Shown one piece after another: positions 1 to 24,239 of a DNA stretch of 32,602 nt. Within the stretch, counting starts at the first letter, position 1, and each line of letters begins with the position of its first letter. The notes under the pieces were generated by a model. That model searched no databases. It had not been told where the DNA came from and saw nothing but the letters and a program-made list of their open reading frames with translations. Location of the stretch: NCBI GenBank assembly GCA_043803745.1, contig JAZDJS010000018.1:1-32602 (forward strand). The letters are read 5' to 3'. A program made the translations under genes and the position numbers. The stretch is from an archaeon. GTDB lineage: Archaea > SpSt-1190 > DYHY01.

Positions 1-1642
1 GGTAGTTGTAAATCGGGTTCGGCCTGTTCGAAATCCCTATCACAGACCCCTCCCGAGCCTTCACTTCCATCGTGTTCGAGACGGTTTCCTCATAGGTGTC
101 GTCCGTCGGGTTTATCGAGACGATAGGAATCCCCTTCCCGACAAGGGCAAGCGACCCGTGCTTCAGCTCTCCCGCAGGCATCCCCTCGGCATGTATGTAG
201 GAAATCTCCTTGAGCTTGAGCGCGCCCTCGATTGCGGCAGCGAAATTTATCCCGCGCCCGATGAAATAGAACGCATTGGCATGCTTGTATTCGGCCGCTA
301 TCTTCTTGAGAACCGCCTTGTTTGCCTCGATTGTTTCCCTCAAAAGGCGCGCAGCTTCCCTGACCTTGGGGAACGACTCCCTGTACTTCCCGTTGAGAGC
401 CTGTGCAAGGAGGTAAAATGTCATTATCGTCGCCGAAAACGTCTTCGTTGCCGCAACGCCGATCTCCGGCCCCGCACGCATGTAAATCGTCCCGTCCGAC
501 TCGCGGGTTAGGGAGGAGCCTACGACGTTCACTATCGAGTAAACCTTCGCGCCCTGTTTCTTTGCCGCCCGGACGGATTCCATGACGTCGGCGGTTTCCC
601 CGGACTGGGAAATCGCAATGACAAGCGTGCCTTTTCCAAGGGAGCCCGCAAAATGGCTGAACTCAGAGGCAAGGAGGACGTCGCAGTAAAGCCCGTTCTC
701 CCTGACGAGAAGATACCGCCCTATCAGCGCGGCGTGGCGCGAGGTTCCGCAGGCAACCATCACTATTCTCTTCGCCGCCCTCATCTCCGCCGTAAGCTTC
801 CGGATGACTTTTTCATCCTGGGCAATTATCGCAGGCAGGGTTTCCGGCTGTTCCTCGATTTCCTTCAGCATGTAGTGGGGATATCCGTTGAGCTTGGCAG
901 CTTCGGGGCTCCAGGAAATTTTCCAGAGCGGGCGGCGGATTTTCTTTCCATCCTTGGTAATTGAAACGCCTTTTTTCGTGAGAACCGCCAGTTCCCCGTC
1001 CTCGAGAACCATTGCGTTCCTCGTGTGCGCAAGGAAGGCCGGCACGTCGGATGCAAGGAAATTCTCGCCCTTGCCAACCCCGATCACGAGCGGGCTCGAT
1101 TTGCGGGCGGCGACTATTTTTCCCGGTTCAAGCGGGGAAACCACGCCAAGGGCATATGAGCCTTGGAGAAGGGGCAGGATTCTTGCCACTGCCCCCTCCA
1201 AGGTCATTTGCCTGCCGGAGGAATTTGCGAGTTCGCCAGCAATGAGATGCGCAATAATCTCCGTGTCCGTTTCCGAGGAGAACTTCGCTCCCCGGGAAAT
1301 TAGCCCTTCCTTCAGTTCCACGAAATTCTCGACAATCCCATTATGGACAACGCCGACAATCCCCTTCGGATCGAAATGCGGATGGCTGTTCGGGATAGAG
1401 GGCTTCCCGTGCGTTGCCCAGCGGGTGTGCGCGATCCCGGTCGTTCCAAGGAAGGATGAATAATTCACCTGCGCCTCGAGCCCGCTTACCCGCCCGACTG
1501 ATTTTCTGACCCGGAATTTTTTTCCGCTGTCAATAACGACAATCCCCGCCGAATCATATCCGCGATATTCAAGGCTTTTCAGCCCGGAAATAAGCAGCTG
1601 AGCGCAGTTCTTTTCACCGACATACCCTATTATTCCGCACAT
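1..1642 (-). CDS. glmS: Glutamine--fructose-6-phosphate transaminase (isomerizing); 3' end runs off the window
   Basis: Manual minus-strand translation from ATG 1642 gives MCGIIGYVG...LEYRGYDSAG (N-terminal nucleophile Cys of class II glutamine amidotransferases). Near the window edge it reads EGALKLKEISYIHAEGMPAGELKHGSLAL (second SIS domain). It is missing from the ORF track, consistent with its stop lying outside the window. Confidence 0.97.
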   Translation of the reverse strand, partial: MCGIIGYVGEKNCAQLLISGLKSLEYRGYDSAGIVVIDSGKKFRVRKSVGRVSGLEAQVNYSSFLGTTGIAHTRWATHGKPSIPNSHPHFDPKGIVGVVHNGIVENFVELKEGLISRGAKFSSETDTEIIAHLIAGELANSSGRQMTLEGAVARILPLLQGSYALGVVSPLEPGKIVAARKSSPLVIGVGKGENFLASDVPAFLAHTRNAMVLEDGELAVLTKKGVSITKDGKKIRRPLWKISWSPEAAKLNGYPHYMLKEIEEQPETLPAIIAQDEKVIRKLTAEMRAAKRIVMVACGTSRHAALIGRYLLVRENGLYCDVLLASEFSHFAGSLGKGTLVIAISQSGETADVMESVRAAKKQGAKVYSIVNVVGSSLTRESDGTIYMRAGPEIGVAATKTFSATIMTFYLLAQALNGKYRESFPKVREAARLLRETIEANKAVLKKIAAEYKHANAFYFIGRGINFAAAIEGALKLKEISYIHAEGMPAGELKHGSLALVGKGIPIVSINPTDDTYEETVSNTMEVKAREGSVIGISNRPNPIYNY

Positions 1643-1797: not shown

Positions 1798-2715
1798 ATG
1801 ATTTTAATAGTTGAAAAAACCGGAAACAAATACGTGGCAGCCGAGGGAAAACTCGTTACGCCCGCGGCGTTCTCGGTTTTGCTGAACCCCCTGCGGCTGA
1901 AAATACTTTCCGAAATCGCGGGCAAGCCGGCATATCCATCAGAAATCGCCGGGAAAATGCGGCTGCCCGAACAGAAGGTTTTCTACCACATCAACCAGCT
2001 TAGGAAAGGGGGCTTTGTCGAGATTGAACGGCGGGAGGAGCGTCGGGGGGGTCTTGCGAAATATTTCCGGGCAACCGGCAAGGCTTTCGCGCTCAAGCTC
2101 CCGAACGCGGAGGAATTCGACCTCCCGGTTTCCCTGCCCAATGCAACGAGCATCCCGAAGTTCCTTTCCGGCTTTGTCACAAGGGGCGGCGAGTTTGACG
2201 GGCTCGTTGTCGTCGGCTCGCCCGATGCCCACGGCCCGAACAAGGCAAGAGCCCGCGACGGGCACTATGCAACTGACCTGGCCGGATTTGTCGGAAGCAT
2301 TGCGCGGATATTTTCCCCCGTTGTGCGGACTGACACCGAGATAAAGGAAAGCGAGCGGAAAAGGAACCTGATTCTCGTCGGGGGGCCGATAACAAACATG
2401 CTTGTAGGAGAGGTTAACGGGTCCCTGCGCTTGCGTTTTGACGGGGATCACAACTGGGACATCTATTCCGAAAAATCCGGCAAGTTCTATTCAGAGGAGG
2501 AGTGCGGGATTATCGCAAGCGCGAAAAGCCCTTGGAACCCCGACGCGCGGATTGTGGTGATTGCCGGAAAGCGCTTTTCCGGGACCCGCTCCTCAATACT
2601 CGCAATCCTTTCCGGCGGGGAGAAATTCTCTTCCGCAGGGAACCTTGTTGTCGAGGGAACTGACCTTGACGGGGACGGGATTGTTGACTCCGCTGAAATC
2701 AAGGAGTCGTTCTGA
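1798..2715 (+). CDS. ArsR-type winged-HTH regulator fused to an S-layer-C-terminal-like alpha/beta domain ending in a DxDxDG loop
   Basis: LNPLRLKILSEI...PAYPSEIA...EQKVFYHINQLRKGGFVEI is an ArsR-like HTH. The C-terminal domain has NLILVGGPITN and IVVIAG..FSGT and ends DLDGDGIVDSAE. ATG 1798 chosen over TTG 1717 from the TATA position. Confidence 0.8.
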   Translation: MILIVEKTGNKYVAAEGKLVTPAAFSVLLNPLRLKILSEIAGKPAYPSEIAGKMRLPEQKVFYHINQLRKGGFVEIERREERRGGLAKYFRATGKAFALKLPNAEEFDLPVSLPNATSIPKFLSGFVTRGGEFDGLVVVGSPDAHGPNKARARDGHYATDLAGFVGSIARIFSPVVRTDTEIKESERKRNLILVGGPITNMLVGEVNGSLRLRFDGDHNWDIYSEKSGKFYSEEECGIIASAKSPWNPDARIVVIAGKRFSGTRSSILAILSGGEKFSSAGNLVVEGTDLDGDGIVDSAEIKESF

Positions 2716-3030
2716 ATAGGCGAGGAAATCCGGCTGAGCCGGGTTGATGCAAGCGAAATAAAAGAGGCGTTCTAGCCAAAAGTCGCTTGCGAAATCTGGA
2801 GCGGAGCGAAAGGTCGACGCGGCAGAGATTAAGGAGTCTTTTTGAGTCTGCTGCGGAGATCTGGAGCGGTTGAGGCAGAGGCATTACCAACGAAATCCGG
2901 AGCCAATGTTTGATGTAGGCGGCGGAAGCGAAAGGTTGATGCGGTGGAAGTGAAAGAGGCATTTTGAAACTGCGGACGGGGACTCCGGCGAATCTGAGCT
3001 GCTGCCGGCGAAATCAAGGAAGCCTTCTGG
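2668..3030 (+). repeat. Array of degenerate direct copies of the upstream gene's last ~11 codons
   Basis: Gene end 2683-2715 reads VDSAEIKESF*. Copies: 2743-2775 VDASEIKEAF*, 2813-2845 VDAAEIKESF*, 2935-2967 VDAVEVKEAF*. Partial copies: 2975-2992 (DGDSGE) and 3007-3030 (GEIKEAFW). Confidence 0.85.
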
Positions 3031-3036
3031 AAAGAA

Positions 3037-3390
3037 CTAGAAGAGTTCCTGCAGTTCCTTGCCCCATTTCGCGCCGGCGACGATGAGGATTGCCCCGAGA
3101 CCGAAGAACCCGAGGGAAACGTACCGGAGTATCCCGGTAGGCTTGACAAGGCTCGAAATTGCCTCGTAAATCCCGATAAGGACGAGACCGACATATATTG
3201 AGGAGAATGCGAACGCAAGGGTTATCAGGAAGGTTTCCTTCTTCGAAAGGACGAGATACCGCTCCGAAACCGTAATCCGCTTGAGTATGTTCTCGGCAAG
3301 GCCCTTCAGCCCCCAGGCATATACCAGAAGGATTAGTATTGTCGCGATGAACGCCGGATCCCTCAAAAGCTCCTCTGAAAATGAGACCAT
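3037..3390 (-). CDS. Small hypothetical membrane protein (about 3 TM segments)
   Basis: From ATG 3390 (MVSFSEELLRDP...), with three hydrophobic stretches; no recognised family. Confidence 0.7.
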   Translation of the reverse strand: MVSFSEELLRDPAFIATILILLVYAWGLKGLAENILKRITVSERYLVLSKKETFLITLAFAFSSIYVGLVLIGIYEAISSLVKPTGILRYVSLGFFGLGAILIVAGAKWGKELQELF

Positions 3391-3470
3391 TCTGCCAAGG
3401 AGAGGGGGTTCTTGATTAAAAGGTTTCCGGGGGAGAAAAAGATAAATCTGGGCCGGGACCCAGGAGCGCC

Positions 3471-3806
3471 ATGCCAATACTGAAACTCGTGAAGGGGAGC
3501 CGGGAAGCCAAGTTCCTCCATTTGCTTGACCTGAGGAACATGAAGGTGATATTCAGCAAGGACAGAACTGGCGTGCGGGTCGAGGTTTGCGAGACGAAGG
3601 ACAAACCGCCTTACATTGCAACCCTGAAATTCTCATTTTACATAAGCGAGACCGAATATTCAAAGATAGCGAAGAAGCATCAGGGAATAATGCAGAAAAT
3701 GATGCAGGACCTTTCAAACCTTTCAAGGACGATTGAGAAGCTCTACAACAGCAAGAGGAAGTCGGAAATCCAAGATGGCAATGGCGAAGAGAAAAAAGGC
3801 AGGTAG
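3471..3806 (+). CDS. Hypothetical protein, 111 aa
   Basis: ATG start preceded by GGAG; protein-like composition; divergent from the 3390 gene; overlaps the ferredoxin start. Confidence 0.6.
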   Translation: MPILKLVKGSREAKFLHLLDLRNMKVIFSKDRTGVRVEVCETKDKPPYIATLKFSFYISETEYSKIAKKHQGIMQKMMQDLSNLSRTIEKLYNSKRKSEIQDGNGEEKKGR

Positions 3807-8328: not shown

Positions 8329-9414
8329 ATGATGCGGGAAAAAAAGGATGCTGACCCTCAAAGAAAGGGGGAAAATTTCGGGGACGGCTTCTCGGACGGA
8401 TTTGTTCCCCTGAAATCGCTTGATCTTTCGAAATGCAAGACGATTGACGACATTGTCAGGGGAATGTCCCTCACTGCGTTCGGGGGGCGCGAAGTTGGCG
8501 AGGCTGCCGACGCCCTTGAGAAGATGGTGCGCGACAAGTCCTGCTTCCGGGTCCTGACCCTTTCCGGGGCAATGACCGTTGCTAAAATGGGCCTCGTGAT
8601 CTGCGACATGATTGACTGCGGAATGGTTGACGCGGTCGTGTCAACGGGCGCCCTGATGGCCCACGGGTTCATCGAGGCTGCCGGGATGGCGCATTTCAAG
8701 TACGATTCCCACAAGATGGCCGATGAGGAGCTCTATCAGAAGGGCTATGACCGGGTATATGACACTCTTGAACTTGAAAGCAACCTTGACGGAGCGGAGA
8801 ACATCATCAGGGCAATCTATAGGACCCTCCCCCAAGGAGAGGAAACCTGCAGCTGGAAAATAAACCGGCTGTTCGGAAAATTCCTTTCTCAGAACACGAA
8901 AAGAAGCGAACGGGGAGTCCTCAAGTCAGCTTACCTGAACGATGTCCCCGTCTACATTCCGGCGTTCACGGATTCCGAGTTCGGCCTCGACTTTGGGATT
9001 TATCGGAGGCGGATGAAGCTCGACGGAAAGCCGCCGGCGAAATTCAATCCGTTCCACGATCTTGAAGATTACACCGCGCGGGTGAAGGCTGCCAAAAGGC
9101 TGGGGATATTCACGATTGGAGGAGGGGTCCCGAGGAACTGGGCGCAGCAGGTCGGGCCGTACCTCGACATAATAAACACCCGGATTGGCGAGGGCGGAGC
9201 GTTCAAGCGGTTCCATTATGCTGTAAGGATTTGTCCGGAACCCGCCCACTGGGGGGGCCTTTCCGGCTGCACATATTCGGAAGGGGTTTCCTGGGGAAAG
9301 TTCGTCCCGGTTAGCGAGGGCGGAGTCCAGGTTGAAGTCCACTCTGACGCGACAATTGCCTGGCCTTTCATTGTGAAGGCTGTGATGGAGCGGCTGGAGC
9401 GCAGGAAAATATGA
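8329..9414 (+). CDS. Deoxyhypusine synthase-family protein
   Basis: Motifs VVSTGA, YIPAFTDSEFG, IGGGVPRNW, GGLSGCTYSEGVSWGK (catalytic Lys in SWGK) and VHSDATIAWP; TTTAAA about 20 nt upstream. Confidence 0.92.
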   Translation: MMREKKDADPQRKGENFGDGFSDGFVPLKSLDLSKCKTIDDIVRGMSLTAFGGREVGEAADALEKMVRDKSCFRVLTLSGAMTVAKMGLVICDMIDCGMVDAVVSTGALMAHGFIEAAGMAHFKYDSHKMADEELYQKGYDRVYDTLELESNLDGAENIIRAIYRTLPQGEETCSWKINRLFGKFLSQNTKRSERGVLKSAYLNDVPVYIPAFTDSEFGLDFGIYRRRMKLDGKPPAKFNPFHDLEDYTARVKAAKRLGIFTIGGGVPRNWAQQVGPYLDIINTRIGEGGAFKRFHYAVRICPEPAHWGGLSGCTYSEGVSWGKFVPVSEGGVQVEVHSDATIAWPFIVKAVMERLERRKI

Positions 9415-9500
9415 GGGTGGTGCCTCCCGCGCGGAAGGAGGAATTGACAAGTCCTCTTCAGGGGGCTGTGATGGAGCTGCTGGAGCGCAGGAAAAAATGA
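9378..9500 (+). repeat. 37-nt direct repeat of the DHS 3' end including its stop codon
   Basis: 9378-9414 GGCTGTGATGGAGCGGCTGGAGCGCAGGAAAATATGA vs 9464-9500 GGCTGTGATGGAGCTGCTGGAGCGCAGGAAAAAATGA; 35/37 identical. Confidence 0.92.
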
Positions 9501-10357
9501 GAAAGATTGGAATTGTCGGCCTTGGAATAATGGGGCGCGGGATTGCGGAGAATTTTCTTGGGAAAAATCACCATGTTTTTGTCTGGAACCGAACGACAAG
9601 CGTTTCGGAGGAGTTCGGAAAGAGGGGCGCGATTGTCTGCTCAAGCCCGGAAAAAGTTGCAAAGAGCGCCGACATTGTCTTTGAAGTTACCGCAAACGAC
9701 GAATCCTCGCGGGAGGTTTGGCTTGGGAACGAAGGAATTATTGCGGGGGCGAACCCCGACAAGTTCCTGGTTGCCTGTGCAACTCTTTCCTCCGGCTGGG
9801 TTGACGCGCTTGCACAAGAGTGCAAAAGCCGGGGTTTTGTTTTCTTTGATGCGGCGCTGACCGGGGGGCGGATTGGGGCGGAAACTGGAAGCCTCACGCT
9901 TCTCTGCGGCGGCGATGAAAAGCTGCTTGATGAACTAAGGCCGGACCTTTCGGCAATTTCCAAAGGCGTCCTTCACTTCGGGCCGGCCGGGCAGGGGATG
10001 CGCTACAAGCTGATTTTGAATTTCCTCCAGGCAACCCACATGGCCGGATTCAACCAGGCAATGAAAATTGCCAAATCTCAGGGAATGGATTTGAAAAAGG
10101 TTTCCGATGCCCTGGTCGAGAGGCCTGGCGGGGTAATCACATCTATTGCAAAGAAGGCGTATTTCACGGAGCCCGACCCGGCGACTTTTTCGGTTGAGTG
10201 GCTTGCAAAGGACCTGGGATATGTGAGGGAAATGGCCGGGCATTCCGGCGGGCCGCTTCTTGACGCAGTCTTCGACGAATGCAGCAAAGCCGTCAAGGCC
10301 GGACTTGGGAAAAAGGACTGGGCAATGATCGGAAGGTCCCCTGCTGACGGAGAATGA
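9497..10357 (+). CDS. NAD(P)-dependent beta-hydroxyacid dehydrogenase (3-hydroxyisobutyrate dehydrogenase family)
   Basis: KIGIVGLGIMG Rossmann motif, VWNRT, FDAALTGG (DAPVSGG-like) and GQGMRYKLILN with the catalytic Lys. Confidence 0.9.
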   Translation: MRKIGIVGLGIMGRGIAENFLGKNHHVFVWNRTTSVSEEFGKRGAIVCSSPEKVAKSADIVFEVTANDESSREVWLGNEGIIAGANPDKFLVACATLSSGWVDALAQECKSRGFVFFDAALTGGRIGAETGSLTLLCGGDEKLLDELRPDLSAISKGVLHFGPAGQGMRYKLILNFLQATHMAGFNQAMKIAKSQGMDLKKVSDALVERPGGVITSIAKKAYFTEPDPATFSVEWLAKDLGYVREMAGHSGGPLLDAVFDECSKAVKAGLGKKDWAMIGRSPADGE

Positions 10358-23897: not shown

Positions 23898-24024
23898 TTG
23901 GTTCAATTGGAACGGCGCGATATTAAGGGTTTGCGCTCCCTTTCAGTCCTCGGAATTGGAATTTGAGCGCGTTTTCCTTGAGTTTCCTTTGAATGTGACG
24001 TGGTGAACCTGATTGCCCGCAGCC

Positions 24025-24154
24025 TTGAACTACCGCGGGCTAAAGCCCGCGGATTCTCGGTAATAGGCGGGCTTCGCCCGCAATCACAGTGTGAAATCTG
24101 GAGCGCGCGTATTTCCGCCCTCAAAGGGCAGAGTTTTGCGCGCGAAAGAATAAA
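24025..24154 (+). mobile_element. Non-autonomous IS200/IS605-like miniature element (PATE-like), no ORF
   Basis: Left hairpin TTGAACTA-CCGCGGGC-TAAA-GCCCGCGG-ATTC; middle hairpin GCGGGC-TTC-GCCCGC; right hairpin TTCCGCCCT-CAA-AGGGCAGAG within a GCGCGC stem, ending GAAAGAATAAA. These resemble IS200/IS605 subterminal palindromes. Boundaries are approximate. Confidence 0.6.
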
Positions 24155-24239
24155 CCGGGATTTGTCTTCACAATTAACGTAAGCGAAATGTTCGGAGGCG
24201 GGGAAGCTGATATGAAACTGTTTCCGACCTGATAATTAA

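Follow-up and report, generated by a model that had tools for sequence, protein, structure and literature searches.

Respelled copies of a gene's own 3' end are stacked behind an archaeal regulator gene and suggest serial replacement of the gene end

The 32,602-nucleotide (nt) contig JAZDJS010000018.1 of an archaeal genome assembly (GCA_043803745.1; GTDB lineage Archaea; SpSt-1190; DYHY01), analysed here over its full length and referred to as the window, carries a gene for a regulator-like protein that is followed by a stack of displaced copies of its own last ten codons (Table 1). The source genome (G000) is of metagenome type, with 1.23 Mb in 51 contigs and a completeness of 90%, and the window is its contig C18; other loci are given as contig and position in G000. 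The genomes used for comparison are metagenome-derived as well, with few close relatives of G000 among them. The regulator protein matched the Pfam profiles HTH_20 (E=1.8e-10) and S_layer_C (E=8.1e-8), has 375 homologues at E<=1e-20, and ends in a DxDxDG-like loop, ...DLDGDGIVDSAEIKESF, directly before the stop. The spacing DxDxDGxxDxxE can be read in the C-terminal sequence, and comparison of the last 39 aa with EF-hand profiles led to sub-threshold matches (EF-hand_5, E=0.079, 12.9 bits at a cut-off of 25.9; EF-hand_1, E=0.13). The two variable residues of the tail are what we take to be non-liganding positions of a calcium-binding, EF-hand-like loop of the DxDxDG type. From the regulator stop to a convergent membrane-protein gene there are 321 nt, which hold all displaced copies; the synteny of this second gene is kept in the same-genus genome G001, in G003 from another genus and in the related metagenome locus L021 described below.

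Behind the live end (c0), four displaced copies (c1 to c4, counted away from the gene) could be recognised, the first of which begins nine codons past the regulator's TGA and in its frame. The peptides of the copies agree at 6 to 9 of 10 residues; c2, with 9/10 residues the same, differs from c0 at eight nucleotides, distributed as 1, 0 and 7 over codon positions 1, 2 and 3. The most distal copy, c4, consists of two pieces (2975-2986 and 3007-3030) with the former stop now reading TGG, and by eye represents a single longer stretch of a former gene end that has lost 12 nt and gained 20 nt (2993-3012), the gained segment having an 8-nt direct repeat at its borders. One extra copy, degenerate and internally deleted, was seen by eye at ~2869-2888. 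No ATG, GTG or TTG is present from the preceding in-frame stop up to any copy; an earlier note on this DNA had already described c2 and c3 as having no start upstream, and its coordinates, codons, frames, stops and differences all held on recheck; the leader it had described as common to c2 and c3 and the spacer motif GA(A/G)ATC(C/T)GG it had placed at 2725, 2791, 2856 and 2892 are likewise present.

When the whole of G000 was translated in six frames, E[IVL]KE[ASG]F occurred six times, five of them in this array. Among the five copies, 4/10, 1/10 and 10/10 columns vary at codon positions 1, 2 and 3, that is, all third positions against 5/20 first and second positions taken together (Fisher p=1.0e-4), and the stop is retained in place as TGA or TAG in four of the five, with TAG in one. 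The residue pairs that vary among the copies (SA, AS, AA, AV) also vary in natural homologues (DSV, DAV, DAA, DAS), and the third-position divergence is about that seen between genera while the peptides stay intact. As an unused, locally duplicated copy would change at all positions, with a third-position excess of about 2:1 at most, these differences most likely arose under translation elsewhere, and the copies would have gained them while translated somewhere. The codon-periodic divergence supports the proposal of the earlier note that a protein-level constraint is preserved in DNA that is now non-coding.

The array does not behave as an ordinary repeat. A repeat search scored its units at 66-74% identity, the period is not constant (57 to 72 nt), and Tandem Repeats Finder over 2400-3300 returned no row because the units are less than 70% alike. 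Comparison of the array with G000 by blastn-short gave only chance matches of 13-17 nt outside the locus, hence no dispersed repeat family, and Rfam gave nothing at the gathering threshold in the window and only chance-level matches (E 1.2-8.2) in 2600-3100. A simple slippage array of constant period was rejected for the negative Tandem Repeats Finder result, the changing period and the codon-periodic divergence (p=1e-4). An array of clustered regularly interspaced short palindromic repeats (CRISPR) was discarded as well, with repeats just 66-74% alike, spacers with shared motifs and no Cas1 in G000, as was a diversity-generating retroelement, the differences at third codon positions involving all four bases and not template adenines. 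Two open reading frames (ORFs) on the minus strand (2699-2962 and 2829-3218) were not accepted as genes; neither has a credible Pfam family, and the second overlaps the membrane-protein gene in another frame.

The units follow a common design, in which the 5' arm of a hairpin lies in the two variable codons and the 3' arm starts shortly past the stop (0-9 nt in c1 and in the live and first displaced units of L021), so that the stop codon is positioned in the loop. Stems at the equivalent place were found in four of eight regulator units, three by a shuffle test of the 3' flank and c2 by folding alone. Stems as long as those observed were reached by 2/1000 shuffles for c1 (8 bp) and, in L021, by 6/1000 for the live unit (8 bp) and 13/1000 for its own first displaced copy (7 bp). 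The stem sequences differ among units, and c1 and the live unit of L021 form a compensated pair with G-C for A-T. By fold and shuffle test no such stem is present in the gene end of G001, the distal ancestral copies, c3, c4 or the present live end c0. Stems of at least 7 bp across the stop are not general to genes (90/1131 versus 80/1131 in the control), and the strongest include two of the loci treated here. The stem is followed by box A (GARATCYGGAGC), with 12 occurrences in G000, three of them in this array, versus 0 for the reversed control; in G001 its five matches lie mostly inside coding sequence, and box A is not by itself a genus-wide marker. Box B, a purine-rich GCGGAAG or GCGAAAG, abuts the next copy on its upstream side. 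A relaxed box A-box B pattern led to 52 matches that were mostly intragenic and noisy, and the intergenic cases alone were used. The spacers between copies measure 27-89 nt and contain no ORF. The elements trailing c0 (GGAAATCCGG, then a small palindrome with CCGG, then GTTGA) are seen again in G001 behind another gene, between three stacked units of this other gene's own end; the c0 trailer and this G001 trailer, which ends in GTTGAC, are identical in 26/40 aligned columns.

Table 1. Features of the regulator locus in the window, and cargo-bearing cassettes elsewhere in the source genome G000.
Feature	Position	Strand	Basis or remark
Regulator-like gene, 305 aa	1798-2715	+	ORF list, Pfam profiles; HTH_20/ArsR N-terminus, S_layer_C-like domain
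c0, live end, last 10 codons + TGA, VDSAEIKESF-stop	2683-2715	+	Sequence, translation
Trailer after c0: GAAATCCGG motif + small palindrome CCGGC..GCCGG, ends at GTTGAT of c1	2716-2742	+	Sequence, fold
c1, displaced copy VDASEIKEAF-stop, TAG, gene's own frame	2743-2775	+	Sequence, translation
Hairpin of c1: 5' arm 2749-2756 inside copy, 3' arm 2783-2790 past stop	2749-2790	+	Fold; 8 bp Watson-Crick, 9 in fold
Spacer: box A GAAATCTGGAGC 2791-2802, then purine-rich leader ending GCGAAAG (box B) abutting c2	2791-2812	+	Repeat and motif search
c2, displaced copy VDAAEIKESF-stop, TGA, different frame	2813-2845	+	Sequence, translation
Hairpin of c2: arms 2818-2826, 2847-2855	2818-2855	+	Fold; 9 bp including one G-T
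Long spacer: box A 2856-2867, degenerate copy ~2869-2888, box A 2892-2903	2856-2934	+	Motif search, part by eye
Mini-insert ending in leader GCGGAAGCGAAAG	2892-2934	+	Resembles insert at C2:69957 and C44:5288 (by eye)
c3, displaced copy VDAVEVKEAF-stop, TGA, without hairpin	2935-2967	+	Sequence, translation, fold
c4, gene-end remnant DGD..SGE..EIKEAFW, extends back into DGD loop	2975-3030	+	Sequence; adjoins convergent gene end
Convergent membrane-protein gene, 146 aa, no Pfam family	3037-3477	-	ORF list, Pfam; bounds array distally
Cassette, 776 nt, HD-domain protein	C12:9520-10300		Upstream gene's end duplicated at flanks
Cassette, 1149 nt, nucleotidyltransferase + partner ORF	C33:8398-9550		Upstream gene's end duplicated at flanks
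Cassette, 1479 nt, Fic/DOC protein	C45:3560-5040		Upstream gene's end duplicated at flanks
Cassette, 3063 nt, 959-aa Cys-rich surface protein	C2:940-4002		Upstream gene's end duplicated at flanks

Orthologues of the regulator were found in 18 further genomes among 40 other relatives searched (some match in 26 of the 41 genomes including G000), and in those 18 genomes they end at or shortly beyond the same loop; this rules out the case, raised in the earlier note, of a frameshifted remnant of a single repeat-protein gene. In G001 the gene ends in VDSAEIKEVF, its stop overlaps that of the convergent membrane gene, and there is no array. The position of this live end is occupied in the window by c4, which abuts the convergent membrane gene, and c0 is identical to the G001 live end at 25/33 nt. 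Protein scans of metagenomes and of the genome collection led to two loci each, among them two metagenome contigs of separate assemblies, L021 and L022, which are identical in this region and whose gene body is 93% identical to that of G001 (830/891 nt; 6.8% difference). They carry an independent array, with VDASEIKEAF as the live end, then LDSAEIKEAF and then VDSAEIKEAL abutting the membrane gene, each followed by a stop. The live ends of L021 and G001 share 23/33 nt, and the 10 differences are more than the gene-body rate would give (P=4.8e-5), whereas the two displaced L021 copies each match the G001 live end at 26/33 nt. As the live end is thus far from G001 and the displaced ones are closer, the end of the L021 gene was replaced after the split from G001, with the old end kept downstream. 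The peptide of c1 is exactly the live C-terminus of L021, with 27/33 nt identical, and c1 with its flank matches the live unit of L021 in 44/66 aligned columns. Judged by eye, decay in the window increases distally: c1 and c2 are whole and form hairpins, c3 forms none, a further copy has lost internal sequence, and c4 is in fragments.

Similar structures were sought at other genes by taking stop-to-stop ORFs of at least 80 aa and looking for their last five residues and stop within 300 nt downstream, with the region 2 kb further on as control. In G000 a copy of the tail lies downstream of 33/7043 ORFs versus 8/6430 controls, and in 364 kb sampled from G001 downstream of 8/1737 versus 2/1556. 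Period-3 mismatches between live and displaced ends were seen at C48:50213, C21:86031, C36:44952, C1:5850, C12:10298 and C48:4493. Pooled under an automatic boundary rule, 4 differences fall on first, 6 on second and 16 on third codon positions (p=0.003), counts that are a lower bound and not the main statistic, as the rule clipped those loci in which respelling is heaviest. At C21:86031, codons -10 to -6, which lie outside the range biased by detection, differ at 5/5 third positions, all synonymously, as read from the alignments; the G001 orthologue of this gene also has end copies. C48:50213 was detected by a 35-nt nucleotide match as well, and its adjoining seven-codon tail shows six third-position changes and a changed stop. 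Here the displaced copy agrees with the same-genus orthologue at 20/24 positions and the live tail at 15/24, and with the orthologue from the other genus (G003) the live tail agrees at 18/24 and the displaced copy at 13/24. Behind the G003 orthologue (L072, G003:C3) a seemingly related insert and a decayed displaced copy were seen, and by eye both inserts end in the same short motif right before the displaced copy; if the inserts are related, the duplication of this gene end would predate the split of the two genera. A second stack, at C49:67089, consists of four units encoding PKIAS and a stop; two synonymous spellings are used, and in every unit the 3' arm is complementary to the spelling of that unit (stems of 10, 6, 10 and 10 bp). 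By eye, the duplications fall into two classes, perfect ones that run 6-40 nt beyond the stop and respelled ones in which similarity ceases at the stop codon. The window itself has another duplicated gene end at 9378-9501, where a gene ending in ...AVMERLERRKI is followed 86 nt later by ...AVMELLERRKK, again before a stop, the two sharing 95% identity over 38 nt; they are separated by a 48-nt insert that contains GCGCGGAAGGAGG. Perfect tandem repeats were also noticed at contig ends (C19:1-116 and C50:1-371, with 44-nt and ~111-nt units), one of them spanning a gene end, and may be the reason for the contig breaks at C19 and C50.

Taken together, we regard it as probable that the array consists of stacked, displaced former 3' ends of the regulator gene, left by serial replacement with small modules exchanged between related lineages. 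The recurrence at other genes of G000 and G001, cargo-bearing inserts included, speaks for a general process. Recombination would have brought in a short module of ~55-90 nt on several occasions, each time at the Val-Asp codons (GTYGAY) that lie ten codons from the stop, and every module would have supplied its own respelled, protein-equivalent last ten codons and stop. Most units would also have a 3' arm pairing with the two variable codons, which would put the stop in a hairpin loop, followed by a generic trailer of box A (GARATCYGGAGC) and then purine-rich box B right before the older copy. With each event the gene would stay intact and the previous end would be pushed downstream, where it is untranslated and decays. 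The substitute ends would have evolved as live ends in related lineages, which would explain why the copies differ almost only at third codon positions. The exchange between lineages is what we infer from the comparisons above, and the recombination may be due to a site-specific activity acting at GTYGA. Of equal standing is out-of-register homologous or microhomology recombination with donor DNA already arranged as end-insert-end, the end copies serving as homology arms; the pattern at C48:50213 fits such a donor. In-situ tandem duplication may seed arrays in either case. The order of gene, new end, box A ... box B and old end is the one expected of site-specific integration with a gene-end mimic (attL, attR), the gene's 3' end is directly duplicated around inserted DNA with the gene intact, as in integrative elements, and the newest unit being proximal and the oldest distal and most decayed is the order of serial integration. 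The earlier note had left open whether the copies are a record of serial 3'-end replacement or a silent-cassette array; the codon pattern, the place of c4 at the end position of G001 and the L021 array favour the former.

Several results weigh against this interpretation. Neither tyrosine (PF00589) nor serine (PF00239) recombinases had a match in the 90%-complete G000, although the same profiles found PF00589 in 14/14 and PF00239 in 12/14 reference genomes as positive controls, and Y1 transposase (PF01797), TnpB (PF07282), Cas1 (PF01867) and IS110 (PF01548) had no match in G000 either. The sole DDE transposase found (DDE_Tnp_1, C15:86409-86936) lies unlinked on another contig, and neither the end-mimic pattern nor the trailer pattern had a match in the viral contigs searched. 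With 27-89 nt, the spacers fall short of the size that an autonomous element or a double-stranded circle would need, and the identical core common to the copies is GTYGA only; elsewhere in G000, the identical cores between end copies reach 35 nt (C48:50213) and 61 nt (C12:10298). The newest unit is not foreign-looking, as c0 is of the genus-native SA type and has no clean hairpin. The stem of c2 is weak, with just 5 contiguous Watson-Crick pairs, reached by 318/1000 shuffles, the fold z-scores of single units are only -1.2 to -1.4, and the numbers of units compared are small. Detection by peptide similarity biases the last five codons toward synonymous differences, and the orthologue comparison fails to discriminate at C12:10298 (19 versus 18 of 24) and at C21:86031 (26 versus 23 of 33). 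Finally, tandem duplication in situ also takes place in this genus, with perfect stop-spanning units of 61 and 67 nt in G001 (L061, 3 x 61 nt; L067, 3 x 67 nt) and a tandem with an 82-nt offset at C21:52697. As a separate observation, the lack of any tyrosine recombinase match in G000 extends even to the Xer type, despite matches in all 14 control genomes.

The last point leads to the alternative that survives best, although we consider it unlikely, namely that a stop-spanning unit of 55-70 nt was duplicated in tandem in situ by slippage or unequal crossing-over, the first copy keeping the gene whole and the rest decaying neutrally. Besides the near-perfect or perfect units just mentioned, a 20-nt unit in three copies at C21:808, the near identity of the two displaced L021 copies to each other and the resemblance of the C49:67089 array to a duplicated two-unit block are all in line with this process, as is the concentration of local direct repeats at gene borders, with 47/100 loci there although non-coding DNA makes up ~10% on a crude gene map. 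Neutral decay, however, predicts a third-position excess of no more than ~2:1, and the one observed is 7 versus 1 between c0 and c2 and 10/10 versus 5/20 among all columns. Nor would it keep the stops, including a TGA/TAG difference that takes two steps, or let third positions diverge about as far as between genera with intact peptides. In L021 it is the live end and not the displaced copies that departs from G001, and the two copies at C48:50213 resemble orthologues of different genera.

Slightly more doubtful is a selected hairpin array in the 3' untranslated region, acting in RNA stability, transcription termination or translation termination, in which the likeness to the gene end arises because the latter forms one arm. 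Stems of different sequence at the same place in half of the regulator units (with c2 counted on its fold only), the stop codon within the loop, stems in all four C49 units including perfect 10-bp ones in displaced units, and the finding that stems of 7 bp or more across stops are no general gene feature would all agree with it. Yet 7-10 nt suffice for such a stem, whereas the whole ten-codon frame and its stop are conserved, and the residues in the loop, EIKEAF, are conserved best. Stems are lacking in c0, c3 and c4, no Rfam family matched, and the end replacement in L021 is left unexplained.

The silent-cassette part of the earlier proposal, a reservoir of alternative ends by which recombination, read-through or frameshifting would alter the C-terminus of the protein, appears very improbable: the direct orientation of all copies, their open frame with a kept stop and the placement of c1 in the gene's frame nine codons past the TGA are compatible with it, but switching between peptides that are nearly alike (6 to 9 of 10) would alter nothing, identity between the copies and the live end nowhere extends far enough for recombination, c2 is in another frame, and the same structure occurs at many unrelated genes, housekeeping-type genes included. 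We attach as little weight to an assembly artefact in which the metagenome assembler joined gene ends from different strains one after another, as might be feared for an assembly of 51 contigs, since the spacers are unique and have no counterpart in the gene, the contig, at least 32.6 kb long, continues on both sides of the region, the divergence among units is too great for repeats collapsed or expanded in assembly, L021 and L022, two metagenome contigs under separate names, have one and the same comparable array, and similar structures occur in G001. A change of the genetic code or read-through was rejected, TGA being the commonest stop of long ORFs (475/911) and a 547-aa glmS-like ORF being open under table 11.

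Elsewhere in G000, four larger cassettes with cargo are enclosed by duplicated ends of the upstream gene (Table 1), and none of the four contains a recombinase gene. A wider and clearly more tentative proposal, which we regard as possible but would not bet on, is that tiny non-autonomous gene-end modules circulate in this Altiarchaeota-related genus. The 5' arm and loop of their hairpin would encode a gene-specific, respelled C-terminus and stop, and they would insert at the last codons, be able to carry cargo (toxin-antitoxin-like, Fic, HD) and pass between species, by means of some recombinase or with the duplicated ends as homology arms. Under this proposal a stack of the present kind would be a log in which invasions, one after another, could be dated.

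Three further observations concern the window and its genome. A second family of small inserts with the hairpin ACTTTTTCT..AGAAAAAG(G) was found at C11:3675-3847, C50:14503-14628, C50 ~10700 and C44 ~5330, where the inserts lie between perfect direct duplications of gene 3' ends of 36-43 nt, unusually long for target duplications. A hairpin-rich element of ~130-200 nt with several GC-rich stems and an GTGAAATCTGGAGCGCGCG motif is present at ~23990-24200 of the window and at C48 ~58800-59010; it has no Rfam match at the gathering threshold and may be an unclassified small RNA. On the other side of the regulator, and divergent from it, lies an ordinary ORF for a glmS-type glutamine-fructose-6-phosphate aminotransferase (2-1642, minus strand, 547 aa), which is open at the window edge.

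If serial replacement is correct, small archaeal genomes would gain and lose DNA by a route that is invisible to standard annotation, the insertion of small modules, and at times of gene cassettes, at the last codons of particular genes together with a replacement end, and the entry of toxin-antitoxin-like and Fic cargo into genomes without integrases would be explained. The stack would then be a built-in chronological log from which transfers between lineages could be dated, and also a natural case in which synonymous respelling goes together with a hairpin arm that compensates for it. Annotation may take such stacks for repeats, for small ORFs or for extensions by read-through.

Non-exhaustive keyword searches of the literature, in titles and abstracts, returned neither stacked respelled gene ends nor hairpin modules encoding the C-terminus of a gene, and the array was compared with known systems that share some of its features. 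Partial copies of a gene end stored beside the expressed gene are also found in pilE/pilS and in the R64 shufflon, but those store different coding variants and use conserved blocks or inversions, whereas the peptides here are near-identical, in direct orientation and without blocks. Repetitive extragenic palindromes (REP), bacterial interspersed mosaic elements (BIME) and miniature inverted-repeat transposable elements (MITE) are families with one consensus sequence each, which place short hairpin units at gene 3' ends. The short hairpin units behind stops, sometimes in tandem, recall them, as does the second hairpin family of G000 between its perfect 36-43-nt duplications; unlike them, the units here encode a tailored C-terminus with its stop, and at 15-60 nt the target duplications greatly exceed in length any known from MITEs. 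In integrons the newest cassette stands nearest to the fixed end, the cassettes are small and promoterless, some without a gene and some with cargo, and their attC hairpins are conserved in structure and variable in sequence. The array resembles them in its newest-proximal order, small units, hairpins, mixture of cargo-bearing and gene-less inserts and unit borders starting with GTT; hairpins are present in 3-4 of 8 units, and the borders GTTGAT, GTCGAC and GTTGAG partly fit GTTRRRY, though no attC inverse core was seen in the array by eye. Integron cassettes are not known, however, to duplicate or replace the ends of host genes, G000 has no PF00589 match, and the neighbours of the array are a regulator and a membrane protein.

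Closer are the tycheposons of Prochlorococcus, whose successive integration at tRNA genes moves earlier arrivals, along with partial tRNA genes, further out (bioRxiv 10.1101/2020.12.28.424599). In both cases newcomers displace older elements at the same site and remnants of the attachment site accumulate as a record. The target here differs in being a protein-coding end, hence the codon-periodic copies, and the intervening elements are missing or tiny and an integrase was not found. The closest parallel is prophage e14 in Escherichia coli, where icd continues into prophage sequence and the former C-terminal part, now the pseudogene icdC, is left at the opposite end of the prophage with mostly synonymous differences (PMC13626634). 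The inserts here are by contrast 27-89 nt long and contain neither genes nor an integrase, four to five ends are stacked instead of two, there is no long identical core, and the units have a hairpin across the stop. Phage 21 likewise supplies a substitute icd 3' end. As no recombinase was detected in the searches, the array cannot yet be counted among integrase-driven duplications of attachment sites. In the regulator array as in e14, the 3' end of a gene is duplicated, the live end lies in inserted DNA, the displaced end is found beyond it as a C-terminal fragment, the two differ mostly by synonymous changes and the protein is kept.

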